Assembly (NCBI GenBank): GCA_964540205.1
Contig: CAZIMJ010000011.1
Coordinates: 1 to 54,679, forward strand
Source: an uncultured Eubacteriales bacterium
Lineage (GTDB): Bacteria > Acidobacteriota > Aminicenantia > Aminicenantales > Aminicenantaceae
Length of the DNA stretch: 54,679 nt
Direction of reading: 5' to 3'
The stretch's first letter is position 1; each line of letters starts with the position of its first letter. Below the pieces are notes generated by a model. The model was not told the DNA's origin, did no database searches, and was given only the letters and a program-made list of their open reading frames with translations. This document shows, in pieces, positions 13,766-49,420 of this stretch. The position numbers and the translations under genes are program-made.

Positions 13766-16261
13766 TTATTCAAACTGGAGTATTTCTAAATCTCCAACAA
13801 ATAGATTCCGATCTTCTCTTGGACTTTCTGTGTAATAATCATTAATAAATTCAACACTGATTCTGTATTCGCCGCGCTTTATTTGTTTTTGAAAGCGATA
13901 AAATTCCCAAGCATCAGAAGTGACCCATTCGCCCCCGATCATTTTGTCATTCAGCCACACAATCATGTATGGCCATTCACCTTTGGCCCTCTCCCCTTTT
14001 GCGGATACCTTGAATACAAGTTCTCCATCGGGAAGAGATGTCTCTATCCAGCATTGACCCTTCACGTAAAGATTTCCTCCCTGCGATCCTTTCCAATCCG
14101 ATTGAGAGCGTCGTAAGACAAGGCTTTCGCTCCCAGCCTCCTTTTCAGGCGCTGAAAAGGGATCATCACAAAACATCAAGGTCCCTACCCCGATTCCCAA
14201 TTCGCGCGAATCAGAAGTGCCCAGCATTTCCGATGGACTCCATGTTCTGTTGACTTCAAACAATAAAAGGATATTCTCCCTGATCGCATGAGACAGGTCA
14301 TGCCGGTATTCATGCCATGAGCTATCTTTCAGTACAATGTCATCCAACAGTCTTTTCCCCTTAAATAGGCTTCCTAAAATAAATATCTTCACCTCTACAG
14401 GGTTTCTTTGAATGTCCGGATGAGAAGCGATTAAGGGTATAACCAAGTGGGGTTTTTTCACTTTGACTGAAAAACCGGCTTTTCCTTCTGTCCATTTGAA
14501 CTCTTGTTCACCCATTTTCTCGACTTGATAAAAACCAAACTCTTGAACGAGCTCGAACTTCTCGGTTCTACTCTGGAGTGATAGTTCGTGGAAAGAATTC
14601 CAGGTAAACATGCCGGCGAATATCAATATGAATAGACATGCAGTGATTATCTGGAACTTCTTTATATTTCCGGATGTATCCCTTGCAGGAGAGAATGAAA
14701 ACAACATGCCCACAAATAGCCAGAAAGTTAACAGAATCTCAAAACTCAACGTATGCGCGCCAAAAAGGAAAATAACGAACATTGCCATTATTCCAGAGGA
14801 AATGCCGGCATTCAAATAGAAAAATCCTGATTCCCGTTTTTGTTTAAAATTAGATCTATATATCTGTTTGAGAATACCATAAAATATCCAGAAGAAAAAA
14901 AACAATCCGATCAATCCCAACTCTGATGCAACCTGTAAATAAAAATTACCCGAGGAGTCAACAATCACATCATGAGAAGATGTGTTTTGATAAAAGGAGA
15001 TAGGTGCAATTCGAACCGTGTTATATTTCTTATAGAAATTCGGTAATTCACACGTGAACGATCCAACTCCCACACCACTCAAAGGAAAGTCTTTTATCAT
15101 GTGAAGCGCAGAAGGCCACAGCAGCTGCCGGCTGGGCAAGATTTCATCTTTCCAATTTGATTGGAATATAACTCCAATATTTTTTGTGAGCCTTTTGTAC
15201 AGGGTCCCCCTTTTAGACACATTGATCCAATAGGCAAAGAATACCAATATAACGACCGAAAATAAGACAAACACCAAACGCTTTTTCACTATCGGGAGTT
15301 TATCTTTTTGTAAATCAGTGACCGGAATCAAAGCGAAGAGAATAAAAAAACCTGTAGCTAATATCAATCCAAAAAATCCACTCCTGGAACCCACATGCGG
15401 CATCAAAAAAACACCACTCAAAGTGGCAAGGACCATTACCCACATCAAGCTCCTTTTAATGGAAAATATTAAGCCAAAGAACACAGGGATTGTCATCACA
15501 ATGTAGACACCGAGAGCATTCGGGTCTGCAAAGAGTGCGTTAGCTCTATCGAGATTTATAAAAAAACTCGTGTTTCCCAGTTCTATGTCTTTAAATACTT
15601 GATAAAATCCAAACATAAAAGAGAGAACAGTCGAAATAGCAAGACAGAACACTGCTTTTTGAATTGTGTTCTTTGTTTTTAAGACGCTGACGAGTATTAT
15701 AAACCAGATAAATCCAGCTAAATAATTTAAAGAATCGAACAGCACCCTCCGGATAGCTTCTCCCGAACTCACATTCAAGACATTCACGGCAAACTCTTGA
15801 ATGGAAGTCATGAATATAGGGAAAAAGTTTGTGTATCGCCACAGAGTGATCAGAGCTGAGAGCATAATGACAATTGAGGCCCCAAGAATGGGAAAGAAAA
15901 GTGGATTGACTATCTTCAAATGACCAGGACGTCTGACCTGATGGATCAAAAATCCCAATACATAGGCATAAAATACAAAGAAAAGAGGGTTAAATCCCCC
16001 AAGCCCGAAAAAATAAGGCAGACTGCTACTCACAGGAATTAAAAATAGAACCAAAAACGTGCCTGCCCTGAGAGAAAGAGTGGTGCACACCACAATAATA
16101 AGAACGACAGGGACAAGCACGAATTGAAAAGCAAAAATCCGGGGGACATACTTATAATAAAGAAGGAAATAAGCCAGCACATAAACCACAGTCCCGAACA
16201 TCAATGTGATTCGTTTTCTAAGGAACGATCTTTTTGATGGAATAGGCTTGAGTTTGGACAT
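13766..16261 (-). CDS. O-antigen ligase/oligosaccharyltransferase family membrane protein with two C-terminal extracytoplasmic beta-domains (the last CBM60-like)
   Basis: Many TM segments, R...F.DPNALG, GSRSG, R..LW..A..M..DFPL.GVGVGSF, N.YLQ..SELG; C-terminal VEFINDY...DRNLFV; start uncertain (16261-16318). Confidence 0.8.
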   Translation of the reverse strand: MSKLKPIPSKRSFLRKRITLMFGTVVYVLAYFLLYYKYVPRIFAFQFVLVPVVLIIVVCTTLSLRAGTFLVLFLIPVSSSLPYFFGLGGFNPLFFVFYAYVLGFLIHQVRRPGHLKIVNPLFFPILGASIVIMLSALITLWRYTNFFPIFMTSIQEFAVNVLNVSSGEAIRRVLFDSLNYLAGFIWFIILVSVLKTKNTIQKAVFCLAISTVLSFMFGFYQVFKDIELGNTSFFINLDRANALFADPNALGVYIVMTIPVFFGLIFSIKRSLMWVMVLATLSGVFLMPHVGSRSGFFGLILATGFFILFALIPVTDLQKDKLPIVKKRLVFVLFSVVILVFFAYWINVSKRGTLYKRLTKNIGVIFQSNWKDEILPSRQLLWPSALHMIKDFPLSGVGVGSFTCELPNFYKKYNTVRIAPISFYQNTSSHDVIVDSSGNFYLQVASELGLIGLFFFFWIFYGILKQIYRSNFKQKRESGFFYLNAGISSGIMAMFVIFLFGAHTLSFEILLTFWLFVGMLFSFSPARDTSGNIKKFQIITACLFILIFAGMFTWNSFHELSLQSRTEKFELVQEFGFYQVEKMGEQEFKWTEGKAGFSVKVKKPHLVIPLIASHPDIQRNPVEVKIFILGSLFKGKRLLDDIVLKDSSWHEYRHDLSHAIRENILLLFEVNRTWSPSEMLGTSDSRELGIGVGTLMFCDDPFSAPEKEAGSESLVLRRSQSDWKGSQGGNLYVKGQCWIETSLPDGELVFKVSAKGERAKGEWPYMIVWLNDKMIGGEWVTSDAWEFYRFQKQIKRGEYRISVEFINDYYTESPREDRNLFVGDLEILQFE

Positions 16262-16565
16262 CACACATAAAATATCTTGGCTTTTCCTCTCTGTCAATCC
16301 GATCAATAAAATTAACATATCCCCGATTATATCTATTTATAGTGCAAGATTTAAAATTATGGATGGAAGCGTTGAAATGGATTCGATATAATAAGTCATC
16401 AAAGTCAATGAGGACCAGTGATCATCAGTGATTTGATGTACAGATTCTTGTCTTTAACTGTTTCGGATTGAAGGATTTTTAATACTTTTTATCAGGAAAA
16501 AATAGGATAAAACCGCAAATAAAAAGGCAAAGAAAACGCTCTTATTTTTTTTCTCAACTGCGATG

Positions 16566-30265: not shown

Positions 30266-30793
30266 CTATCTCTGGTTCTTGTGCTTGAGTAATTGACAAC
30301 AAATTTCTTCAATATCTTCGGCAAATTTATTGATTCTATTCTCAAGGCCAAGGCTCTCGTCACTTGAACTGCCTAGGTCTTCGACTATTTCATCATAATT
30401 TTCAATTCTATTTTTGATCTCTTCGCTATTGAATGCAACAATGACTGTCCCTTTATCTTCAAGCTTTTTACAAAAATTCATCTGATGATTATCAACATGT
30501 TCACCATGTTCTTTTTGACGTGGCACAACAACCGGTGTCTTCCCTTTATAAAGGGCGAGCATAATGCTACTCGGCCCAGCGTGAGTTATGACCACTCTTG
30601 CATTCTCAATTTTATCCACCATTTCATTGAATTTTAAAAATTTTGCATGTTCACAGAATTTAGGTTCATAGAGTGAATATCCTGTCTGAATAAAAACTTG
30701 TTCAGTTACTATATTTTCTTCCACAAGCCTATCAATTTCTTTGACAAGCCTATCAAAAGGCTGTTCGTGAGTACCAACCGTAACAAAAATCAT
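30266..30793 (-). CDS. pssE: PssE/Cps14G-like glycosyltransferase (GT28 C-terminal half)
   Basis: MIFVTVGTHEQPFDRL, ITHAGP, VPR....GEHVDNHQ; ATGA overlap with pssD. Confidence 0.9.
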   Translation of the reverse strand: MIFVTVGTHEQPFDRLVKEIDRLVEENIVTEQVFIQTGYSLYEPKFCEHAKFLKFNEMVDKIENARVVITHAGPSSIMLALYKGKTPVVVPRQKEHGEHVDNHQMNFCKKLEDKGTVIVAFNSEEIKNRIENYDEIVEDLGSSSDESLGLENRINKFAEDIEEICCQLLKHKNQR

Positions 30794-31239
30794 AGCAATT
30801 GTCCCAAGACTCTCCCTTTCGGATAAAATTTCTTTTGTTCCTGCCACTGGAGCAAAAAAGCATCTGTTATCGGATATACTAATTTCCCCGTCATTGTTGG
30901 TGAATCAATTCTATCGTACACTTCGATATAGACAAGCTTGGCTCCTAGGAGTTTTCCGATATAAAAAAACGGGACGGCCACACCCGCACCGGTCGATACT
31001 ATGATGTCGGGTTTTTCTTTGCGAAGAATTTTCAAGGCAAGAAACGTATTGTGGATTAAGTTTTTAATATTTCTGTTTGTCGGAAAATAGGACCAATAGA
31101 CTTTCTCTTTCGCTAATAGAGATAGAGAATCCTCCTTCTTAAAAGTTACCCAAAATCTTTCAGGCTTCTCCCACCACTTTTTCAAAATAAACAATTGAAA
31201 AAGATGTCCTCCGCTTGATGAAACAAGACACAGTTTCAT
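30790..31239 (-). CDS. pssD: PssD/Cps14F-like (Alg14-type) glycosyltransferase subunit
   Basis: SSSGGHL, FWVTF, PTNRN, STGAGVAVPF, YIEV.DR. Confidence 0.92.
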   Translation of the reverse strand: MKLCLVSSSGGHLFQLFILKKWWEKPERFWVTFKKEDSLSLLAKEKVYWSYFPTNRNIKNLIHNTFLALKILRKEKPDIIVSTGAGVAVPFFYIGKLLGAKLVYIEVYDRIDSPTMTGKLVYPITDAFLLQWQEQKKFYPKGRVLGQLL

Positions 31240-31302: not shown

Positions 31303-33486
31303 TTATTTCACATAGCCGAGAGCCCTCAGTTTTTTTTCCAAATCTGGCGGAATATCAATTTTTCTTCGCTCCAAGCCTAATTCACTCTGACCATTTCGAT
31401 GGGAGAAAAGTTGCTGTAATCTCAGATAGTCTGCAAAACCACTGAATTCAAGATTGACTTGTTCTCGTACATCTTTTATATCATATAGCTCTAAAACTGG
31501 GACATATTTTTTGGGTGGTTTTCTGTGAAAATTTTTATTATAGATCAATTTTTTATTCCTATCCAATATCGCATTTATATCATTACCATCTAATGCCTCT
31601 TCAAAATACAAAGTTCTCTGTGGATCTGAATTGTGCAGAAGAGAGATCCCATCAAGTTTATATGGTTCGCGGATCCTTAGTATGTCCAGGATTGTCGGAT
31701 AAATATCAATATGCTGTGCCCGCTCAAAGTGTATTCCGTTTTTAATTTGTCTTGTTTTTATGCTGAGCGGAATCTTAACCTGCTCATTATATAATGTCAT
31801 TCCATGGACAATGCCTTCATGGTCGAAAAATTCTTCACCATGATCTCCAGTAAAAATAATGACAGCGTCATCATATATATCAATTTCCTTCATTTTATCA
31901 ATTAATCTCCCAAAGGAGAGATCATTAAAATATATTTCTTGATCATAACGTGTTTTTATGTATTCAATTTGAGATGCTGTTGGCTGAATTTTTTTTCTTT
32001 CAATATTGGATAATAATTCAATATCATAGGTATCGATCGGTTCATATTGATGGATATTAAACATATCCTTCACACTTTCTTTAGGGTTATAGGGATCGTG
32101 GGGGTCCATATTCCAAATTATCATAAACAAAGGCTTTCGTTCTTTTTGTCCCAGATACGTTTTTAAGAATTCGAATACGTTTGTGTTAATCTCATCCGAT
32201 CGAACAGTTCGGGCGGGGTACTTACCTAACAACTCTATGAACTCATCAAATCCTTGAGCAAACCCGAATACATGACTAAGATTTCCATTACTTATCCACG
32301 CAACATTATAATATCCGTTATCTTTAAGTGTTTCTGCAAGTGAAACGATCTCATCTGGTAGTCTATCTTCCCGTTTCATTGTTTTGTGATTTTTCGGGAA
32401 TAATCCAGTTAGGATCGACGCGCAGCTGGGTTTTGTCCACGAATCATTTGCATACGCATTGATGAAAAGGGAATTTTCCTTAGCAAACTTGTCAATATTC
32501 GGCGATGTGCTCCTTCCGTAACCATAACAGCTCAGATGATCTGCTCTGAGCGCATCAATCACATACAACAGAATGTCTGGTTTTGTTAATTCCTGATTAA
32601 CCTGATGTCTTGGTTGAATCACATCATTTTCTTTATACATGTTTAGTGATATCTGCGACCAGGTTGTAAAACTGTCAGAACATCCATTTGTTACAAATCG
32701 AAGTTTATAGAGCCCTTCTTCCTTAACATGAAGTGTTTTTTTTAATTTCTTGCCTTTTGGTGAAAGCTTAATGATGCGTCTTTTTTTCTTCTGGTTGGTT
32801 AATTCTATTAATGATGTGGCGCTTTTAGCGTTTTCATATTGAATATCAAGTTCAAATCTCTCTGGTAGCTCATAAAAGTAACTAAACGCTGAATTCGCAT
32901 GCTGGATCAACCCTTTATCATCAAAATACTTAAGATTATTTCTAAAACGTATTTTCCGAAAAGCAACGGATAAATTTCTTCTGTCCGTAGAATTTTCATG
33001 GATATCCCTGGCTTCTAAACAATATGAAAACTGAAATTGTAATATATTTTGCCCCAATTTTAATAACGAAGCAGGTAATGTGAAGTTGAATGTTTGAAAT
33101 CTTTGCGGTTCAACAATGAATGAGTCGATTTTTTTCTCATTCAAATGGATAAATACGTTTTGGTTGCTTTTGTTTTTGGAGGGGATTGCACGGCATGTGA
33201 TTTCAACATCTATATCATTCATTTCATTGTATTTGTAAAACAAGATACTGCTTTTTTCTGCGGAAGCCCATGTATATTCTTTTTCAGGATAACTCCACCC
33301 TTGCAATAGAAACCTATTAGGATTTGCTTCTTTTCGAAAATCAATAGCTTCGGTATCTTCCTGGATTTGTGCACGGATATTCTGCAAGATATCATGGCTG
33401 AAATTAAAAGCTTCTTTTTTTTCCAAGGTGCATGCGAATAATGTTAGTAGAATTAGAATGGTTATTAAATGGAACCGCATTCTCAT
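31303..33486 (-). CDS. Sulfatase-like (alkaline phosphatase superfamily) lipoprotein
   Basis: Lipobox LFAC (Cys19); IDALRADHL, SWTKPS, DPHDPY, GDHGEEF; C-terminal LRALGY. Confidence 0.85.
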   Translation of the reverse strand: MRMRFHLITILILLTLFACTLEKKEAFNFSHDILQNIRAQIQEDTEAIDFRKEANPNRFLLQGWSYPEKEYTWASAEKSSILFYKYNEMNDIDVEITCRAIPSKNKSNQNVFIHLNEKKIDSFIVEPQRFQTFNFTLPASLLKLGQNILQFQFSYCLEARDIHENSTDRRNLSVAFRKIRFRNNLKYFDDKGLIQHANSAFSYFYELPERFELDIQYENAKSATSLIELTNQKKKRRIIKLSPKGKKLKKTLHVKEEGLYKLRFVTNGCSDSFTTWSQISLNMYKENDVIQPRHQVNQELTKPDILLYVIDALRADHLSCYGYGRSTSPNIDKFAKENSLFINAYANDSWTKPSCASILTGLFPKNHKTMKREDRLPDEIVSLAETLKDNGYYNVAWISNGNLSHVFGFAQGFDEFIELLGKYPARTVRSDEINTNVFEFLKTYLGQKERKPLFMIIWNMDPHDPYNPKESVKDMFNIHQYEPIDTYDIELLSNIERKKIQPTASQIEYIKTRYDQEIYFNDLSFGRLIDKMKEIDIYDDAVIIFTGDHGEEFFDHEGIVHGMTLYNEQVKIPLSIKTRQIKNGIHFERAQHIDIYPTILDILRIREPYKLDGISLLHNSDPQRTLYFEEALDGNDINAILDRNKKLIYNKNFHRKPPKKYVPVLELYDIKDVREQVNLEFSGFADYLRLQQLFSHRNGQSELGLERRKIDIPPDLEKKLRALGYVK

Positions 33487-33775
33487 CGTTTTATTTCTTA
33501 TTCCAGTTCATCCTCATTCAAATTCTCGATCAGGTATATTCTAATAAAGCACCTGTAAAGATACAACAATTTTAAGTGCTTTGAATTCTCCCAGTTGAAC
33601 GGTTATGATAATCACTATGATTTGTTTCTCTAACTCCTAAGCAAAATAATTGAATTTTTTATTGACATAACGCATAAATTTTGATGAAGTGTATAGAGCC
33701 CAGAATGAGGATGGCTGTTTACATCGCAAGATTTAACTCTTGCGTCATAAATGAATACTTTTTTTTAAATAAATG

Positions 33776-33782
33776 AAGGAGG
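33776..33782 (+). promoter_or_regulatory. Consensus Shine-Dalgarno AAGGAGG for the secreted protein gene
   Basis: AAGGAGG, 5 nt, then ATG at 33788; a small hairpin CGCAAGA-N6-TCTTGCG lies upstream at 33725-33744. Confidence 0.7.
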
Positions 33783-33787
33783 AAAAA

Positions 33788-34579
33788 ATGAGAAAAGCCA
33801 AAACATTGTTTGTTGTGGTGTTATTTATGTGCTTAACATCATTATCTCTGTTCGCCCAGTATGATAACTCTCCCGCTACCTTTAAGGTTATACCTTCGGT
33901 CATCTGGGCACCTGCGTCGGGAGGCGGCACCTGGTATACAGAACTTCAGATATGGTCAAGAACATCAGGTACTTCAGTCAATGTTTATTTCATGTATGGA
34001 GGAGGAGTATGGAGGTATCACCCAGGCTTCTGGACAAGTGTTGGGGCAGATGATTGTTACAAAAGCACAAATATTTTAGGTTCCCTTTATGGTCTTGATT
34101 CAGGCTTCACTTATTATGGAAAATCTGGCACACTGTTGATATACTCCTACGGGGGTTCGGTTCAAGCCACGGCGAGAACACGCCACACTGGGAACTATGC
34201 AAAAACAATAAACGGGTTGAGTAATACGGATTCAAATACGGCTGCATCAGGAAGATATCTGATGATGATGAATGTGCTGCAATCCTCTAGCTACAGAACT
34301 TCTCTTACCTTATATAATCATGGTTCGGCTTGTGATGTTTATATTCAAGTAGTACATAATGGCTACGTTGCCGGTTCAACAATCACTAAATCTATGGTAC
34401 CGTATGATTATCAGGCGTTTGATGTCTTTGCTGCTGCTGGCCTATCAGGTACGTACACCAATACCTTCATAATAGTATGGGCCTCGACCACGGGGGGGCG
34501 GATTTTCTGTGGTGCCGCTTCAGCGCATAACACTACTAATGATCCTGCTTATCACGTTGCTCAGGGATGGACCTATTAG
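33788..34579 (+). CDS. Secreted protein consisting of a single ~245-aa unnamed beta-rich domain
   Basis: Sec signal peptide (MRKAK, hydrophobic core, SLFA/Q); mature part aligns end to end with the two C-terminal repeats of the neighbouring C25 protease. Confidence 0.85.
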   Translation: MRKAKTLFVVVLFMCLTSLSLFAQYDNSPATFKVIPSVIWAPASGGGTWYTELQIWSRTSGTSVNVYFMYGGGVWRYHPGFWTSVGADDCYKSTNILGSLYGLDSGFTYYGKSGTLLIYSYGGSVQATARTRHTGNYAKTINGLSNTDSNTAASGRYLMMMNVLQSSSYRTSLTLYNHGSACDVYIQVVHNGYVAGSTITKSMVPYDYQAFDVFAAAGLSGTYTNTFIIVWASTTGGRIFCGAASAHNTTNDPAYHVAQGWTY

Positions 34580-34678
34580 CAGAACTCAAGAGAATATCTT
34601 TAGGATAATCCTTTCCTACTACTGATTTCGAGAGGGTAATTACCGATACAGAAGGAAGAAGTTTTTTCACTTATTCCA

Positions 34679-37600
34679 TTATTCCGGTTTCACAGCTTGA
34701 TGTGCAGCAGGGTCATTGGTGTTATTATTAGCGGTCGCTCCGGAACACACAAGTCTTCCAGAGCCAAAAAGTGGACGGACTCGCAGATAAACATTATCGT
34801 ATGAATTAGCCGGATACGGAACTCCAGCCTCATCAAATGGATTAAAGGATTGATAATCGAATCCTATAAATATTTGTGTGAAGGGGGAACCGAGCACACT
34901 AGCGGATCCGTTATACAGAGCAAACTCAACTGTCACTTCATTAGATGTCGGATTAAAAAAACCTGACCCTGTCCTGTAAGTACTGTTGTTAGCGATATTT
35001 TGGATGTACATATTACTTTCTGTACCTGCCATGTTGGATTCTACATAGGCATTCACTGCTTGCACAGTCTTCGAATAGTTGCCGTTCATGGTCCGGGCGG
35101 CCACATGGATCTTATGAGTTGCATCCTGTGTTATAAAGTCGAGTGTTCCGGCTTTCCCATAGTAAGTAAAGGATCCACTGTCAAGGCTATCTATAGCTGA
35201 GAGAATGTTGGGAAATTTTATGCTCCGGTTGACTCCAGGGCTGGTCCATAAAATAAATGGCCCTCGTCGATTCCCGCTCCCATAATTAAAATAGACGGAA
35301 ACTTGTGAACCTCCTGATAAATCTACGATCTGAACTTCCGTCACCCAAGTCCCTCCCCCTGAAGCCGGCGCCCATAAGGCTCCAGGCAGGATCTGATAAT
35401 CGCAAGGAGAATTTTCATACGCGTCCGCTACGCTAACTGCCAGATGCGCAGCCGGATCATTGGTGTTGTTATTGGCGGTCGCTCCATAACACATGAGTCT
35501 TCCAGAGCCTGAAAGTGGATGGACTCGCAGAAAGACATTATCGTATGAGGAAGTCGGATATGGAACTCCCGCCTCATTAAATGGATTAAAAGTTTGATAA
35601 TCGTACCCTAAAAATGCTTTTGTGAATGCGGAGCCGAGCGTACTTCCGGTACTCTCGACCAATCGCAACTCTACTGTCACACCATCGGATGTAGGATTAA
35701 AAAATCCGGCCGCCGGCCGGTAGACGCTGTTGCTAGTGAGATCCTGGATCAGCATTTCACGCGTAACATCCGCCGTATTGGACTCCACATCATTCAATCC
35801 GGAATAAGTCTTGGAGTAGTTCCCGTTAAAAGTCCTAGCGGCGACAAGGATCTTATGGCCTGTATCCTGGGTAATGAACTCGAGCGCCCCTACACGCCCA
35901 TAATAATCGAATGATCCACTGTCCAGATTGTCTATGGACTCGAGAATGTTATCGAACTTGATACTCCGGTTAATCCCAGGGCTGGTCCACAGGACAATGG
36001 GTCCCCTCCGGTTGCCTCCACCGTAGTTAAAATAGACAGAGACCTGTGAACCTCCTGTGGCATCCGTGATTTGTACGTTCGTGATCCAGGTCCCCCCGCC
36101 AGTCGCCGGCGCCCATATAACCCCAGGGAGTACCTGATAATTATTGGACGAATAATACCCTTGAGTTGATTGGGTTACAAACTGCCAGTCTGGTCCTGAT
36201 GTATCCCCACAGGCATTTTTTGCTATGATCTTCCAACAATAGGTGGTGTCATAGTTGAGTTGAGGAAGATCATACTCACTCTCTGTGACGTTGTCATAAT
36301 ATGCAGGAGGATAGCTTGTTCCGAAATACACATCATAAGAAGCAGCCCCGCTACTGTCGGCCCAATCCAGGTTCCTATTGATGGGAACGCTTATGGCTCC
36401 ATTCATGGGAGAGGAATCGGAAGGGATTGAAGGAGCGACACAGGTGGAAATGGTTACAGTCAATCCGTCAGACCAACCAGACGTGACAGCGGGAGTTACA
36501 GCACATCTGGCCTGGGCTTTCACACTGTAAGTTCCCAGAGAAGACCAGGAGTGCAAGGCCGAAGTGGAACTCGACCACACAGAGAAGTTGCCGTCGTCCC
36601 AATCAAAACGATATTCAATCCCATGTCCTTGCGAACACGAAGATCCCCCAGTCGTATAAATATAAGAAACACTGACCTCGCCCTGAGTGATCCCTGAAGG
36701 TATGCCGGGCACAGAGACAGTGTGGGCACTCAAATGCTCAGACAATGACATGGCCGGATCACCATAGAGGTTAAAATCAAACAAGTTCATCCAATGGGCG
36801 CCGCCCCACCAAGTGTATTGGTTTGTTCCCATGTCATTTTTCACATCATAAAGGGCTACGGCCGCTTTTTTATCGTTACTCACCAATTCATTTCCATAAT
36901 AATAGCCGATGCTGGCGTTATCGCAGTAATATTTAAGTCCCGGAAACCATAAAGTCACAGCATACCAGCTCACTCGGCTCGCACTGACCGTGGTAATAGC
37001 ACCGTTATACAGCAAAGCGGTTCCTAGATTGTTGGAAACTTCCGGATAACCGTTTAAGCATGAGCATTGATAGACAAAAGACGGGTAACTGTCATTCAAT
37101 GAACTCGAACCTGATGAATTCATGATGGTGCCCCACCCGCAACCGGAATAACCCAGATAGGCCCCTGTTTCGCTGCCATGTCCCCACCACCAAACCATCC
37201 CGTATGGATTGCTCATCCACCTCGAGAGCGTGGCTCCATCGACTAACTCTTGATTGGAAGAAAATGAGGAATTCGCTGCTGAACAGAGACTGCCCTGCTG
37301 GTAAAGGGTCCAAGGAGAATATCCCTGGGAAATCAGATAGCCGGATTTCATGTATTCTGCCAAATAGGCTCCATCGGTCGTAGGATCTGAAAAACTCATC
37401 GGAAGTAGAGCATTCTCTCTCCATGTTATCCCACTGCTATCGGCATTCCCGTAGCCTATAGTCTTTGTTAAGACTGAATCAAGGCTTGTTACTCCGGAAT
37501 AGACCGGAATTCTACCGACATAGACCTCATTAGCGAAATCAACCCCGCCTACCCCTCCGTCGTCCGGATACTCGCCGAAGTATGCGTCTCCGTCCTTATT

Positions 37601-38605
37601 CCAGTTACCGGTAAGGTCCGCGTAAAAATAATCTGTAGGCGATTCTCGATAACTGGATTCACTTCGCCGCGGCCAACACATCTTCATCGGGATGTTGCCA
37701 GAAGGATTGGGATTTCCCATCAGCAGCACAAACTGGATGGAATAGCCGATATAGTTATTGATCAGCCATTGTCTTATTTTTTCTGCAGTTCCGTTTGGTG
37801 CTTGTCCTGTAAGCGAACCATAATCATTTTCCGTAATGACTAAGGGCGAAAAACCTTTGCCAGTAAGATAATTCTGAAAATCGGTGAGTTTCGTGCTGGA
37901 GGCGACTATCGAATTGGTCGTGATAATCACATAATCATACACTTGTGAAGGACCATATTCCAGGTCAGTTGGGTTATACCATTTTTCCGACTCGGAATAA
38001 TTCATCAGTATCTTTTTCGCTCTTTCATCCATAACTTGGTCGGATAATACTAGATCAGGAAGGCCGGGGATGCTGGGTTGGCTGTATTGTATTTGAATTG
38101 TAACTTCGGAGAAATATCTTAGATCGCCTGTTATCGGATTATATTGAAAGGGTGTGTATTTGATGGCAACGATCTTCCACTTCCTCATCTGTGATACACC
38201 GATAAACTCCAAGTTATTTTCCGGAAGATAAGCGTTCTCATTGTAGACATTAACTCTCTTTTCAATTGTCTGCTCTCCGTCTGCCCAGGTAGCCAGAGGA
38301 GGAAGCGCCTCGATCTGATAACGACCAAGGGAGGCCGTCTTGCCGTCTATCATTTTGACCTGGATGGTGTTGAGGTTCACCCCAGGAGGTACAGCAATGC
38401 GATAGACTTTTGCTGGAAGATCTGGAAAACCGGGCACTCCGTAGGAAAAAAAACCATCAATCGAAATCTTGTGAAATCCGGTTGCTTTTTCCTTAATCTG
38501 ATATTTTGGTGTTATTAACTTGTAGGTCTGTTCCCCAAACAAAAAGGATCCACCAAAAAAAAAGACCGCCATCAATATGCCTGAGAATATCTTTTTAGTA
38601 TTCAT
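34679..38605 (-). CDS. Secreted peptidase C25 (gingipain-like) with propeptide, PKD-like and FN3-like domains and two C-terminal ~246-aa repeats
   Basis: Signal peptide; G.PDLP propeptide; YVIIT, TDYFYADL, VGRIPV, catalytic GHG and SCLNG, NLYGDP; start taken at ATG 38605. Confidence 0.88.
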   Translation of the reverse strand: MNTKKIFSGILMAVFFFGGSFLFGEQTYKLITPKYQIKEKATGFHKISIDGFFSYGVPGFPDLPAKVYRIAVPPGVNLNTIQVKMIDGKTASLGRYQIEALPPLATWADGEQTIEKRVNVYNENAYLPENNLEFIGVSQMRKWKIVAIKYTPFQYNPITGDLRYFSEVTIQIQYSQPSIPGLPDLVLSDQVMDERAKKILMNYSESEKWYNPTDLEYGPSQVYDYVIITTNSIVASSTKLTDFQNYLTGKGFSPLVITENDYGSLTGQAPNGTAEKIRQWLINNYIGYSIQFVLLMGNPNPSGNIPMKMCWPRRSESSYRESPTDYFYADLTGNWNKDGDAYFGEYPDDGGVGGVDFANEVYVGRIPVYSGVTSLDSVLTKTIGYGNADSSGITWRENALLPMSFSDPTTDGAYLAEYMKSGYLISQGYSPWTLYQQGSLCSAANSSFSSNQELVDGATLSRWMSNPYGMVWWWGHGSETGAYLGYSGCGWGTIMNSSGSSSLNDSYPSFVYQCSCLNGYPEVSNNLGTALLYNGAITTVSASRVSWYAVTLWFPGLKYYCDNASIGYYYGNELVSNDKKAAVALYDVKNDMGTNQYTWWGGAHWMNLFDFNLYGDPAMSLSEHLSAHTVSVPGIPSGITQGEVSVSYIYTTGGSSCSQGHGIEYRFDWDDGNFSVWSSSTSALHSWSSLGTYSVKAQARCAVTPAVTSGWSDGLTVTISTCVAPSIPSDSSPMNGAISVPINRNLDWADSSGAASYDVYFGTSYPPAYYDNVTESEYDLPQLNYDTTYCWKIIAKNACGDTSGPDWQFVTQSTQGYYSSNNYQVLPGVIWAPATGGGTWITNVQITDATGGSQVSVYFNYGGGNRRGPIVLWTSPGINRSIKFDNILESIDNLDSGSFDYYGRVGALEFITQDTGHKILVAARTFNGNYSKTYSGLNDVESNTADVTREMLIQDLTSNSVYRPAAGFFNPTSDGVTVELRLVESTGSTLGSAFTKAFLGYDYQTFNPFNEAGVPYPTSSYDNVFLRVHPLSGSGRLMCYGATANNNTNDPAAHLAVSVADAYENSPCDYQILPGALWAPASGGGTWVTEVQIVDLSGGSQVSVYFNYGSGNRRGPFILWTSPGVNRSIKFPNILSAIDSLDSGSFTYYGKAGTLDFITQDATHKIHVAARTMNGNYSKTVQAVNAYVESNMAGTESNMYIQNIANNSTYRTGSGFFNPTSNEVTVEFALYNGSASVLGSPFTQIFIGFDYQSFNPFDEAGVPYPANSYDNVYLRVRPLFGSGRLVCSGATANNNTNDPAAHQAVKPE
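34682..36157 (-). repeat. Diverged intragenic tandem repeat, 2 x 738 bp (about 35420-36157 and 34682-35419)
   Basis: Both units run from YQ.LPG..WAPA.GGGTW.T.VQI to ATANNNTNDPAAH, spaced 246 codons apart. Confidence 0.9.
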
Positions 38606-38821
38606 TTTTTCTCGCAAAGTGTTAGAAATAAAATTCACAATATCGCATTTTTTTCTTGTGAGACATCCCCACTCTAAGATTCCTAGGCTTAATTATAATA
38701 GAAGAAACGCGGATGTAAATAACCTTAAGGGGTGATTCCTGGGGTGAATTTGGTGTCTATAAAAAATAATCTGGGCGGAATCTCCGACCAAAATTTTAAA
38801 ATCTTTCCGGAAGTTAGACTT

Positions 38822-39808
38822 TCATTGTTGTTTAAACTTCCGGAAAAACAACGACTTGAGAGGGCACAAAGTACACAACCACCCAACAAGCGGAAGCCAT
38901 TTCCAGAATATCGGTCCGATCCTCAGGGCTTTTTTGAAATATGTTCTGGCTTCCTTCCATAATCCTCGCGATAAGCACATCCTGGCCTCGAATAGGTAAG
39001 AATAAGTGATACGTATGCGCTCTTTTCTTCGAATTCTCTCACTTGAAAAGTGATAGGTCTCCTTCAGATGGGCAGGGACGGTCTGAACAAATTGCTTGGC
39101 TGCATCTGAGGCTGCACGGGCAAAATTCTCATGAAGTTCCGCAGTGCTCTGAGCCTCATGCCGCCGCCAATATCCCACAAGACTATCGACATAACAAAAC
39201 TCTCCCTCAAGAGCCATTCGCAAAAACGTGGGATAATCAACATAATAACGGGACGAACTGAATCCGCCAATTGAAGCCAAGTTTTCCCTTCTCATAAGAA
39301 CCGACACTGCAGGAATAACATTCCGATAGAATAACCGAGTAAGAATCCGGCCCGGTGGACGGTTGAAAGCTACGTCGACTCGAGGCTTTTTTCTTGGCCT
39401 AAAACCAAGAATATTGCCTTCTTCGTCGGTAAAGGCTGTTTTTCCCCAACTCAAAACGTTGTTTTTATTTTCAAAACAAGTAACCTGTTTTTCTAGTTTA
39501 TCATTAGGCCAGAAATCGTCCCCCTCTAGTATTGCAATAACCTCACCCTTGGCATGCTCTAATGCCTGATTATATGAATCCGCTAAGGCCTGCAATCCCC
39601 AGGTTTTTTCATGGAAGATGATCCTCAACCGGCTCTCTAATCGAGCGAAATGGTGAAGGATCTGAACTGTTTGATCTTGCGATCCGTCATCAATGATGAT
39701 CTGTTCCCACTGTGGGTAGGATTGTTTCAGTACGGATTCAAGACAATATCGGATATATTTATCTTGATTATACGTCAGCGTTATGATTGATACGAGAGGT
39801 TTATTCAT
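38822..39808 (-). CDS. Glycosyltransferase family 2
   Basis: PLVSII..TYN, IIDDGS.D, LEGDDFW..DKL..Q. Confidence 0.93.
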   Translation of the reverse strand: MNKPLVSIITLTYNQDKYIRYCLESVLKQSYPQWEQIIIDDGSQDQTVQILHHFARLESRLRIIFHEKTWGLQALADSYNQALEHAKGEVIAILEGDDFWPNDKLEKQVTCFENKNNVLSWGKTAFTDEEGNILGFRPRKKPRVDVAFNRPPGRILTRLFYRNVIPAVSVLMRRENLASIGGFSSSRYYVDYPTFLRMALEGEFCYVDSLVGYWRRHEAQSTAELHENFARAASDAAKQFVQTVPAHLKETYHFSSERIRRKERIRITYSYLFEARMCLSRGLWKEARTYFKKALRIGPIFWKWLPLVGWLCTLCPLKSLFFRKFKQQ

Positions 39809-47911: not shown

Positions 47912-49420
47912 ATGAAATCAACAGAGGGAAAAACACTAAAATCCAGCATAATCATCAGCCTTTTTACTTTGTTGACCAGCGTATTTAATTATCTTGCTCT
48001 TTTCCTTTTAGCGGCTACCTTTGGGACAAGAATGGAAATGGATGCCTATTTTGCAGCCATAACTATCCCTCAAATCATCACACTTATTCTGCTTGCAACA
48101 TTATCCACAACGTTTATTCCAGTTTTTATTGAAGTAAGGTCGACAGATGAACCTCGGGCATGGAAGTTGGCAAGCATATCTGTAAATTTAGTTTTTTTCC
48201 TACTGCTTATACTAGCCCTCATAGGCTACATTTTATCAAAAAATGTGATCACGCAAGTGAATCCAGGCTTTCCAGAAGAGACTTCAAGTCTTGCGAGTTC
48301 TCTTTTTAGAATATTCCTCATTTCTGTTGTATTTTCAGGCACATCTATCATACTAAGCAGCTTATATTATGCGCACCAGCGATTTGTTAAAGCTCCACTT
48401 ACACAGTGGCTGAGTAGTTTTGTGACTTTTCTTTTCGTCGTCTCTTTGCGTTCGAGTTTAGGGATAAAAAGTATTGCTGTGGGGATGTTGGCAGGTTCTC
48501 TTATTCAGTTCTTCTCCCTTCTTTCCATTTTATTGAGACGATACAGTCCTTCATTTAATTTTAAAGACAAAGAGATTGTGAAGTTGGCTAGGTTAATCAT
48601 TCCACTCCTTATTGGATCAATTTTTTATAGGTCAAATACACTTGTGGAACGGTTCATTGCTTCCAAATTAGGTGAAGGCAGTATTTCCTATCTCGGATAT
48701 GCGTACAAGATAATCATCGCATTCGTCCTGTTAATAAATCAGGGAATTTCCACAGTTCTTTTTCCGAGGATGTCTGAGTATTCAGCTGTCGGAGATTTTG
48801 AGGGACTAAAAGAGATACTTTCTAAGGGAATTAGAGCTTTAATTGTGATTACAGTGCCTATTGTATTTATGATAATTTTTGCTAGACTTGAATTGGTTCA
48901 AATAATTTTTGAAAGAGGCAATTTTAGCCATCAAGATACCATAGCTGTGAGTAAGGCACTCATCGCTTACCTGGGATTTTTCATAGTTAGCGCAATCGTA
49001 CTCCCGCTTGTTAACACTTTGTATTCTCTCCAAGAAACATTTAAAGTAGCTGTAGTAGGTGTATTCGGATTCACACTTTATGTTTTTTTGGCCTTTTTGC
49101 TATCTGATTACCTTTCCTATACGGGGATAGCACTGGCAGTCTCGATACAATATCTCATCAGCCTCATTGTTTTTATATTTATTGTTCGGATGGAATTGGG
49201 CAAATTTGAATTAAGAACTATTATTCGATGCATTTTTAAAGCAGTTATCTCTTCAGGATTGGCTTCCCTTGCTATTTTTTCAATACGTAAACTACTGATC
49301 TTTCCGATTGAACACCCCTTCGATTTAATGATATTTGGGGTGTTAGGTTTTGCTTTTTATTTTTTAATCTTGAAAATCTTAAAGGCTGAAGAATTGAAAT
49401 TTTTATCAATCAAAACATGA
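47912..49420 (+). CDS. MurJ/MviN-family (MOP) flippase, probably for a surface glycan rather than lipid II
   Basis: FG....DAYF.A..IP, FIPVF, PGF, AS.L.EG.ISYL.YA, FERG.F...DT. Confidence 0.85.
   Translation: MKSTEGKTLKSSIIISLFTLLTSVFNYLALFLLAATFGTRMEMDAYFAAITIPQIITLILLATLSTTFIPVFIEVRSTDEPRAWKLASISVNLVFFLLLILALIGYILSKNVITQVNPGFPEETSSLASSLFRIFLISVVFSGTSIILSSLYYAHQRFVKAPLTQWLSSFVTFLFVVSLRSSLGIKSIAVGMLAGSLIQFFSLLSILLRRYSPSFNFKDKEIVKLARLIIPLLIGSIFYRSNTLVERFIASKLGEGSISYLGYAYKIIIAFVLLINQGISTVLFPRMSEYSAVGDFEGLKEILSKGIRALIVITVPIVFMIIFARLELVQIIFERGNFSHQDTIAVSKALIAYLGFFIVSAIVLPLVNTLYSLQETFKVAVVGVFGFTLYVFLAFLLSDYLSYTGIALAVSIQYLISLIVFIFIVRMELGKFELRTIIRCIFKAVISSGLASLAIFSIRKLLIFPIEHPFDLMIFGVLGFAFYFLILKILKAEELKFLSIKT

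Follow-up and report, generated by a model that had tools for sequence, protein, structure and literature searches.

We describe a protein domain of about 240 amino acids (aa) that occurs three times in the 54,679-nt contig CAZIMJ010000011.1 (assembly GCA_964540205.1). This whole contig is what we call the window, and its source genome is coded G000. One copy makes up nearly all of a small secreted protein, and the other two stand in tandem at the C-terminus of a protease of the gingipain family (C25) encoded by the next gene; together the two genes extend exactly from 33788 to 38605. In the reading that we favor, to which we would give an even chance of being correct, two such domains build a unit of four lobes that serves as a non-covalent, lectin-like anchor to a polysaccharide of the cell's own surface. 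The results that carry it are the homology of the copies, the size and the architectures of the family, the fold match of the N-terminal lobe, the packing predicted for the unit, and the enrichment of the family's genes beside glycan genes.

A domain shared by two convergent genes

Both open reading frames (ORFs) are confirmed, the small gene on the + strand and the large one on the - strand, in convergent orientation and with 99 bp between them. An earlier note on this DNA had recognized three copies of one domain that align end to end, and so they do, with the motifs that it quoted. The stand-alone protein matches the first copy on the C25 protein with an E-value of 3.7e-47 (43% identity, residues 33-263) and the second with 2.5e-46 (41% identity), and the two C25 copies are identical at 165 of 248 positions. 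The homology of the three copies is far beyond chance. A profile search of the whole G000 genome (4.6 Mb, 91% complete) at E ≤ 1 returns only these three copies.

The earlier description of the small protein, as a signal peptide and the domain alone, rich in Ser, Thr, Gly and Tyr and preceded by a perfect Shine-Dalgarno (SD) sequence AAGGAGG, also stands. The true start of the gene is ATG 33788, because the longer ORF called from 33773 would include the SD sequence; the homologue P0001 and other close homologues begin at the equivalent Met. The product has 263 aa, of which 25 form the signal peptide and 238 the domain. The mature protein is about 26 kDa, with low charge and a composition of 10.9% S, 11.3% T, 11.8% G and 8.8% Y. 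Within the close stand-alone subfamily, a conserved …SLFA closes the signal peptide and Q-Y-D-N-S-P comes next (window 33860-33865), so that the mature N-terminus would be Gln. We presume that an N-terminal pyroglutamate is conceivable there, as in some secreted proteins of other phyla.

The large gene encodes a C25 protease that ends in the other two copies, as the note had it. Membership of peptidase family C25 is indicated by Pfam for the catalytic region (Peptidase_C25, 102.2 bits against a cut-off of 23) and for the propeptide (Propeptide_C25, 45.9 bits against 22). The matched region contains G-H-G at residues 486-488 and Q-C-S-C at 524-527 (numbers follow a reading of 1319 aa), which we take to be the putative equivalents of the gingipain catalytic His/Cys dyad. 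The gene most likely starts at ATG 38605 (MNTKK...), which gives 1308 aa, equal to the orthologue P0013 (1308 aa, with the equivalent Met). By eye, the spacer between the protease and the pair of domains resembles two small β modules, and relatives have PKD, BACON or Fn3 domains at that place.

By codon adaptation, the stand-alone gene ranks in the 6th percentile among 2964 ORFs and the C25 gene in the 25th, with a weak bias overall (median 0.808); the reference was the ORFs of the ribosomal-protein contig, with spurious ORFs among them, which makes this a weak test. A scan of 33400-38900 for promoters and terminators gives 12 promoter-like sites where 10.4 are expected, and one terminator-like site where 4.7 are expected, so that no usable signal emerges.

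Fold of the domain and its relation to the ASRAH superfamily

An AlphaFold model of the domain, built on an alignment of 13 sequences, has a predicted local distance difference test score (pLDDT) of 91.8 and a predicted template-modeling score (pTM) of 0.87. It consists of two β-sandwich lobes, residues 1-120 and 121-238, with the same order of elements in both: four long strands, a short strand, a short helix, and three strands. A scan of 48,161 chains independent of Foldseek gives a clear match of the predicted N-lobe to the TM1070/ASRT fold, and the N-lobe is an eight-stranded β-sandwich of that topology. Foldseek itself gave weak matches with the whole domain (template-modeling score, TM, about 0.23, to a Pleurotus lectin, RbmA and double-jelly-roll capsids), and TM 0.14 or less with the pair of domains; none of these do we take as meaningful. 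The domain profile has no match at E ≤ 10 among the sequences of the PDB.

Thermotoga TM1070 and ASRT, the Anabaena sensory rhodopsin transducer, are the proteins that define the ASRAH superfamily (De Souza, Iyer and Aravind 2009, PMC2739507). According to the available text of that paper, sugar binding by ASRAH domains is deduced from their architectures and operons, the dimer interface walls the cleft, and versions outside the cell "always occur either as dyads ... or as tetrads". The families described in the same text are intracellular solo proteins, amidase-fused tetrads and actinobacterial lipoproteins, and the actinobacterial cell-surface proteins are proposed to bind the polysaccharide made by a linked glycosyltransferase (PMC2739507). 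In the present family each domain has two lobes and each protein carries one full domain or two, which agrees with dyads and tetrads. The models suggest that each domain of about 240 aa is an ASRAH dyad, and we hold this more confidently for the N-lobe than for the C-lobe. A profile comparison aligns the two lobes in register, with a P-value of only 0.018.

For the C-lobe, the nearest named relative is DUF5719 (PF18986). This model exceeds its 26.2-bit cut-off on three of six relatives (P0170, 35.3; P0164, 28.4; P0043, 26.9), always in the C-lobe and covering profile positions 40-143 of 319. In a protein atlas, the C-lobe adjoins DUF5719 clusters (0.95; 9 of the 30 hits with names), ASRT is also present in some of these clusters, and DUF5719 is the nearest named cluster to the family as a whole (0.92-0.95). 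Presumably, DUF5719 is the actinobacterial lipoprotein family among the ASRAH families of 2009.

Separately, residues 369-466 of P0169, in its C-lobe, have a sub-threshold match to Slr4 (19.2 bits against a cut-off of 25, E 7.8e-4), which may be chance or a very distant relation of fold. Slr4 is described, in the available text of its report, as a surface-layer (S-layer) protein of marine Gammaproteobacteria (PMC7821379).

The earlier note had called the domain undescribed. As far as the family itself goes this holds: no model in Pfam or NCBIfam names the domain, and we found no description of the family in the literature searched or in those two databases. It does not hold for the fold, which belongs to a superfamily that was published in 2009 together with its predicted role, to go by the available text of that paper, and DUF5719 touches some relatives. 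The family is an unnamed branch of that superfamily.

A predicted four-lobe unit

The tandem pair of the C25 protein was modeled as 493 residues on a 17-row alignment. The prediction has a pTM of 0.92 and a mean pLDDT of 94.6, with all five models at 93.8 or above, and in these models the pair folds as one rigid unit.

The stand-alone domain is predicted to reach an equivalent arrangement by pairing with itself. Its homodimer scores 0.64, and the best of three controls scores 0.00; this score is the confidence of the model and not a measurement. A mark of 0.64 is reached by 20 of 30 solved one-chain pairs and by one of 23 solved single chains, counts that are rough since our own alignment was used. 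The dimer runs agree in at least 92% of contacts, with a partner pLDDT of at least 88. In the predicted interface, which is symmetric, the chains are arranged head to tail so that each N-lobe packs on the partner's C-lobe, and the resulting closed two-fold dimer is equivalent to the intramolecular pair. The earlier note had recommended homo-oligomer prediction with a lattice in mind: run on two copies, it gave a dimer and nothing pointing to a lattice.

The copy numbers fit in with a unit of this size. More than two full copies are seen in none of 174 family proteins (58 have two and 77 have one), and in none of 128 ORFs of the loci described below. In the related genome G021, four of the five stand-alone genes are arranged as adjacent pairs, and some contigs (L044, L127 and L129) carry two or three tandem stand-alone paralogues.

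Across 166 copies, 24 positions are conserved at 80% or more, and only two of them, R105 and D227, fall within the 42-residue predicted interface. Those outside it include W15, G20-22, W24, N70, D79, Y84, R145, N152 and N223. Because most conserved positions lie outside the interface, something besides dimerization constrains them, and in the model this hints at room for a candidate ligand site.

Family size, architectures and phylogeny

A word-indexed search reports no more than 12 relatives of the stand-alone size. An exhaustive search with a hidden Markov model (HMM) of 1.84 billion representative proteins, clustered at 50% identity, reports 1365 at E ≤ 0.001, 574 at E ≤ 1e-10 and 122 at E ≤ 1e-30. 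We assigned architectures to 159 proteins. There are 55 stand-alone proteins (at most 330 aa, one full copy) and 43 with a terminal pair, which ends at most 15 aa from the C-terminus; 16 long proteins have one terminal full copy, several of them with a fragmented second copy; four have the pair elsewhere, two are long with one copy and a tail, and 39 are fragments. The idea of one module common to a stand-alone secreted protein and to many C-termini is supported by the 55 and the 43. Two proteins break the C-terminal rule in their own ways: in P0157 the pair leads, with Fn3 and an FGE-sulfatase domain after it, and in P0039 some 400 aa of FG-GAP-like repeats come behind the pair.

The passengers are diverse. 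Among 57 fused proteins that we scanned, proteases are of types C25, C1 (with Lectin_like), S8 (some with PA) and M23, and the other passengers are DUF7948 with SBBP propellers, FG-GAP, Kelch, PQQ with a β-helix, BNR/sortilin, leucine-rich repeats (LRR) and DUF11. Spacers include PKD, BACON, Fn3 and CARDB. No glycoside-hydrolase catalytic family is found among the 57, and 15 of the first 42 are without any family match. By a crude heuristic, a signal peptide is present in all 49 complete stand-alone relatives and in 20 of 38 fused relatives, for which the calls of gene starts are uncertain.

In a maximum-likelihood tree of 166 copies, 45 of the 52 stand-alone copies fall in one clade, and the stand-alone label requires 5 changes against a mean of 44.7 when shuffled. 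The stand-alone form is thus an old, distinct paralogue and not a broken fused gene. First and second copies are intermixed on the tree, often as sisters within one protein, which indicates that the pair has been re-duplicated or homogenized many times.

One further protein has the domain in an unusual place. P0059 (850 aa, on a 99-kb contig) is a Wzy_C protein with 1.5 copies inserted in frame in an extracytoplasmic loop of low complexity. The orthologue P0160 (486 aa) has both flanks at 62-66% identity and is without the insert. Apart from the Pfam family that they share, P0059 has no significant similarity to the two Wzy_C proteins of the window.

Genomic neighborhoods

We collected 101 loci as a context set, 27 from genomes and 74 from metagenomes; 98 have a family ORF, and 25 have several. 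The 345 neighboring ORFs that do not belong to the family were clustered by BLAST, and the recurrent clusters are almost all glycan-assembly genes: a methyltransferase (12 loci), a MurJ-type flippase (8), two clusters of GT4 glycosyltransferases (7 and 5), a sulfatase-family protein (6), a PMT_2/GT-C protein (6) and a GT2 glycosyltransferase (4), followed by an epimerase, Wzy_C with CBM60, Bac_transf, WecG, NTP_transferase and Wzz (3 each).

We counted how often a member of the glycan clusters lies within four ORFs of a family gene, limiting the count to genes with at least three non-family neighbors, which excludes 21 of 45 stand-alone genes and 30 of 75 fused genes, all of them on short contigs. 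Such a neighbor is present for 17 of 24 stand-alone genes (16 of 22 loci) and for 20 of 45 fused genes (17 of 41 loci). By the same BLAST criteria the baseline in G000 is 275 of 3453 ORFs (8.0%), or 237 of 3404 when the window contig is set aside. The linkage to glycan loci that had been expected on the evidence of this one contig recurs on other contigs in these proportions, and it fails for the five stand-alone genes of G021, which are outside such loci.

Stand-alone genes also tend to lie near another gene of the family: 14 of the 36 with any neighbor called have one within two ORFs. The adjoining fused genes elsewhere carry C1, S8, SBBP or unassigned passengers, and C25 is found in none of eight. 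The earlier suggestion that the C25 protease matures the small protein is rejected on this count as a conserved relation.

Distribution and hosts

We covered 41 genomes drawn from the same genus, family and order, and two of them have the domain family, G000 and G021, the latter of another genus in the same family. The HMM search of own and related genomes that the earlier note had called for was thus meager at home, with only three copies in G000, and rich in G021, with 20. These 20 are spread over seven proteins with the pair, one with a single copy, and five stand-alone genes, and the passengers of the pairs include DUF7948 with SBBP, an Fn3-rich region, a C25-like region (1313 aa) and unassigned ones. 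Of 401 genomes sampled evenly across the phylum, 21 match at E ≤ 1e-5, G000 counted. Outside G000 these matches are distant (best 4.7e-21), mostly to the C-lobe only, and in very large proteins.

The carriers with names are metagenome-assembled genomes (MAGs) of Aminicenantes/Acidobacteriota, MAGs labeled "uncultured Eubacteriales", and one Promethearchaeota bin; in the protein atlas, Acidobacteriota is the commonest phylum for the family. The archaeal label belongs to a 16-kb contig (L040) and could reflect mis-binning or gene transfer. The 24 listed datasets that carry the stretch come from metagenomes of salt marsh or sediment, and their kind is DNA or unknown.

G000 encodes LpxC and five matches to the Omp85 family, from which we conclude that the host is a diderm that bears lipopolysaccharide (LPS). 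Exosortase_EpsH was not found in G000 or G021 (91% and 89% complete). Por_Secre_tail and SprA_N gave no match in searches of the same two genomes, in which the controls were also silent. One SLH protein, unrelated to the family, is encoded elsewhere in G000 (contig C310). Sulfatase-family genes are abundant in G000 and its relatives (G000-G040), with 20 matches in G000 and up to 35 (G001), which on gene content suggests a lifestyle built on sulfated or phosphorylated glycans.

A proposed anchor and its alternatives

The mechanism that we propose is as follows. The unit of about 240 aa would be a dyad of two ASRAH-type β-sandwich lobes, and the working form would have four lobes. In fused proteins, two tandem copies would build this form within one chain, and the stand-alone protein would build it as a head-to-tail homodimer. 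The four-lobe unit would bind, non-covalently, a surface polysaccharide that the cell itself makes through Wzx/Wzy-type loci. The C-terminal pair would then tether secreted proteases, β-propeller proteins and LRR proteins to the surface glycan of an LPS-bearing diderm, and the stand-alone dimer, with at least two binding sites, may coat, cross-link or compete for the same glycan. Sugar binding, the identity of the ligand, the surface location and the passage across the outer membrane are the steps that we infer.

A number of observations weigh against this reading. Neither ASRT (PF07100, formerly DUF1362) nor DUF5719 matches the window proteins at E ≤ 1 or any of 64 family members scanned, so the link to ASRAH draws on predicted structure and on borderline matches in a few relatives. 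W15 (87%) and W24 (98%) flank the loop between strands 1 and 2, and no conserved Asn is evident after strand 2; the signature residues of ASRAH, a Trp at the start of strand 1 and an Asn at the end of strand 2, would take a structure-based alignment to place. Sugar binding is a deduction, as it is for ASRAH itself in the available text of the 2009 paper (PMC2739507), and so is the route by which a Sec-exported protein would cross the outer membrane. The fusion with Wzy_C in P0059 is a singleton, an architecture that does not recur among 21 matches.

The neighborhoods have difficulties of their own. The neighbor clusters were defined on the same loci in which they were then counted, and the baseline is one genome. 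The loci are related, several coming from one genome, and the binomial P-values of 1e-9 to 1e-14 are overstated; the effect size is large despite this. The five stand-alone genes of G021 lie among peptidase genes (M14, M24 and M1 adjoin them) and housekeeping genes, outside glycan loci, and one of the five, the sole such case, has UDP-glucose dehydrogenase and Bac_transf genes at a distance of about 8 kb. No single gene of the locus tracks the family among the 41 relatives: Wzy_C with CBM60 is found in 21 of them, the GT-C gene only in G000, and strong full-length matches to the sulfatase-family protein (E ≤ 1e-144) in G000, in G021 (three copies) and also in G013, which is without the family. 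Weaker near-full-length matches to that protein, at 27-30% identity, occur in G020, G013 and G021.

Three other explanations deserve attention. A role as self-assembling subunit was one of two that the earlier note offered for the small protein, and it would make the stand-alone protein the subunit of an S-layer-like or matrix lattice, which the fused proteins join and which the locus glycosylates. We consider it unlikely. The old and conserved stand-alone lineage, the strong SD sequence, the hydroxy- and Gly-rich composition of low charge, the predicted self-association, the nearness of stand-alone genes to other genes of the family, and even the sub-threshold Slr4 match in one relative would all suit it. 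The Wzy_C and PMT_2 types of enzyme include protein glycosyltransferases, and the loci hold both. On the other hand, what is predicted from two copies is a closed two-fold dimer, with nothing that points to an open-ended lattice; the mature protein is small, codon adaptation is low (by a weak test), some contigs have two or three tandem stand-alone paralogues, and the stand-alone genes of G021 are outside glycan loci. Moreover, the fold family as described in the available text of the 2009 paper points to the binding of small ligands, which fits the other role that the note had offered, a glycan-binding anchor.

A lectin-like module might instead look outward. The pair would guide enzymes to a polysaccharide or glycoprotein of the environment (sulfated material from algae or detritus in sediment, for example), in the manner of a carbohydrate-binding module (CBM), and the stand-alone protein would be a soluble capture lectin. 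The hosts come from sediment and salt marsh and are rich in sulfatase-family genes, extracellular proteases dominate the enzymatic passengers, and the stand-alone genes of G021 lie beside peptidase genes. CBMs usually ride on carbohydrate-active enzymes, however, and glycoside hydrolases are absent from the 57 fused proteins; many passengers are non-catalytic binding repeats, the neighborhood is enriched in genes for the synthesis and export of glycans and not for their degradation, and P0059 has the domain inside a protein of the glycan polymerase/ligase type, which together leave this possibility improbable in our estimate. The chances seem smaller still that the pair is a sorting or attachment tag, recognized by an outer-membrane machine like the secretion system of type IX (T9SS) or serving as acceptor for covalent linkage to glycan or lipid by Wzy_C or GT-C enzymes. 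Its terminal position (for 43 of the 47 proteins that have two full copies, no more than 15 aa from the end) is what a tag would have, the cargo is of the types that we associate with T9SS and other C-terminal sorting domains as far as the available sources describe them, a diderm host requires an outer-membrane step, and ligase-like enzymes recur nearby. But known sorting tags are far smaller than the roughly 490 aa of the pair, a separate and conserved lineage of stand-alone secreted proteins makes little sense for a pure tag, the pair is N-terminal or internal in four proteins, the window proteins match neither Por_Secre_tail nor any NCBIfam sorting domain, and the recurrent neighbors include no conserved non-glycan machine.

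Returning to the non-covalent anchor, one can tentatively extend it to a display system, a proposal that is possible but that we think will more probably fail in some part. In it, a four-lobe ASRAH lectin would tether exoenzymes and binding proteins, which can change, to one polysaccharide encoded by the locus and possibly methylated; the stand-alone dimer would be an abundant coat or cross-linker; and the whole would move between genomes with its glycan island. It would be the counterpart, in uncultivated bacteria of the Acidobacteriota type, of SLH with the secondary cell-wall polymer (SCWP) and of CWB2 with PSII.

The surrounding locus

The two genes sit inside a large Wzx/Wzy-type glycan locus, and their setting among genes for ligase or oligosaccharyltransferase-like, GT-C, flippase and glycosyltransferase proteins, as the earlier note had perceived it, is confirmed by Pfam and by the BLAST clusters. 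The locus includes two Wzy_C proteins (one with CBM60), Wzx-type and MurJ-type flippases, Wzz, two Bac_transf proteins, GT4s, one GT2, methyltransferases, an Alg13/Alg14-like pair and a sulfatase-family protein. Every recurrent cluster type is represented in it except WecG and NTP_transferase. Coordinates are collected in Table 1.

Table 1. Features of the two-gene region and of the glycan locus around it (window coordinates)
Feature	Position	Strand	Basis or remark
Wzy_C (O-antigen ligase/polymerase-like) membrane protein with C-terminal CBM60	13766-16318	-	Pfam
Glyco_tran_28_C/Alg13-like half of split glycosyltransferase	30266-30847	-	
Alg14-like half of split glycosyltransferase	30790-31239	-	overlaps Alg13-like gene
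Sulfatase-family lipoprotein-like gene, adjoining stand-alone gene	31303-33486	-	Pfam Sulfatase, E 3.3e-38
SD sequence AAGGAGG of stand-alone gene	33776-33782	+	sequence; 5 nt 5' of ATG 33788
Signal peptide of stand-alone protein (MRKAKTLFVVVLFMCLTSLSLFA, then Q)	33788-33862	+	hydrophobic N-terminus, conserved in close homologues
Stand-alone copy of two-lobed (ASRAH dyad-like) domain, 238 aa and stop	33863-34579	+	
Stop codon of C25 gene	34679-34681	-	
Second (C-terminal) domain copy on C25 protein	34682-35434	-	E 1.2e-141 to family profile
First domain copy on C25 protein	35435-36160	-	E 8.3e-142 to family profile
Spacer from protease to domain pair, about 190 aa	36161-36721	-	no Pfam match at E ≤ 1
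Peptidase_C25 (gingipain-family) catalytic region	36743-37933	-	Pfam, E 4.9e-29, residues 236-632
Propeptide_C25	37988-38500	-	Pfam, E 4.7e-12, residues 47-217
N-terminus and signal peptide of C25 protein, MNTKKIFSGILMAVFFFGG...	38501-38605	-	likely start ATG 38605
GT-C/PMT_2-like membrane protein, 626 aa	45782-47662	-	BLAST, into PMT_2/GT-C cluster
MurJ-type flippase	47912-49420	+	

Some of these genes have features worth recording. The Wzy_C protein with CBM60 has a 70%-identical paralogue in G000 (contig C209:3423-5807), and several of the matches in the 21 related genomes carry one in-frame stop (TGA, TAA or TAG). The 626-aa protein assigned to the PMT_2/GT-C cluster has no Pfam match at 1e-5. 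The sulfatase-family protein has a lipoprotein-like N-terminus (…LLTLFAC), and it reads T-K-P-S-C…TG at the place of the sulfatase signature C-x-P-x-R. Since the signature reads so, we presume that this protein probably uses a Thr nucleophile, in the manner of phosphotransferases and phosphodiesterases, and not formylglycine.

The composition of the locus is mosaic. The segments at 13.7-33.5 kb and 45.8-49.4 kb have 35-40% GC and low codon adaptation, and the block at 33.8-45.4 kb, with both family genes, has 41-46% GC, in a genome of 45.8% GC. This may reflect island-like acquisition, or it may be the ordinary composition of a glycan locus.

Significance

Several traits set this family apart within its superfamily: a predicted ASRAH dyad that stands as a fixed pair at the C-terminus of diverse surface proteins, the separate lineage of secreted stand-alone proteins that are predicted to dimerize, the LPS-bearing hosts of the Acidobacteriota type, and the enrichment in glycan loci. 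If the anchor is real, it would explain how many uncultivated sediment bacteria retain proteases and binding proteins at their surface without T9SS tails, PEP-CTERM or LPXTG. It would also give the ASRAH superfamily, a computational prediction since 2009, its first concrete and testable extracellular role, and ending in the pair would become a marker that predicts, in metagenomes, both a surface proteome and the cognate glycan locus. Should the module bind environmental glycans instead, it would be a new family of CBMs found mostly on proteases, which is itself unusual. The module is compact, confidently predicted and dimeric in the models, which makes experiments on binding and structure straightforward.

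Comparison with known systems

The closest comparison is with the ASRAH families, as the available text of the 2009 paper presents them. The extracellular members there are dyads and tetrads, and here we have two lobes per domain and four per predicted unit; the link to glycosyltransferase genes is shared with the actinobacterial family. In contrast, there is no match here to the ASRT sequence profile, and the H and C cleft residues of the ASRT-like family are not recognizable. A C-terminal tetrad on proteases and propellers, with a secreted stand-alone paralogue, in diderms of the Acidobacteriota type, is not among the three families that this text describes. DUF5719 comes near as the closest named cluster of the atlas and by passing its gathering score on the C-lobe of three relatives, but only about 100 positions of its 319-position model are aligned, and its commonest phylum in the atlas is Actinomycetota.

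In Gram-positive bacteria, non-covalent anchoring to a glycan is the business of SLH domains, which bind the SCWP, and of CWB2 domains, which bind PSII in Clostridioides difficile. Here as there, a repeated module is common to a major stand-alone surface protein and to many surface enzymes, and the genes lie near glycan-making genes. The folds and sequences are unrelated, however, and no SLH or CWB2 Pfam match is found on these proteins; the module has two copies and not three, the host is an LPS-bearing diderm, and binding here would be by analogy.

Finally, gingipains are anchored by way of the T9SS C-terminal domain and A-LPS. In the available sources, that system and this one share a C25 protease and similar cargo with a C-terminal β-sandwich, and a cargo that ends up attached to surface glycan, as it would be here. 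In T9SS the domain serves as a short signal for export that is cleaved off, and the attachment is covalent, whereas the module described here has about 490 aa, also exists as a stand-alone protein, and on the big protein has no match to Por_Secre_tail at E ≤ 1.

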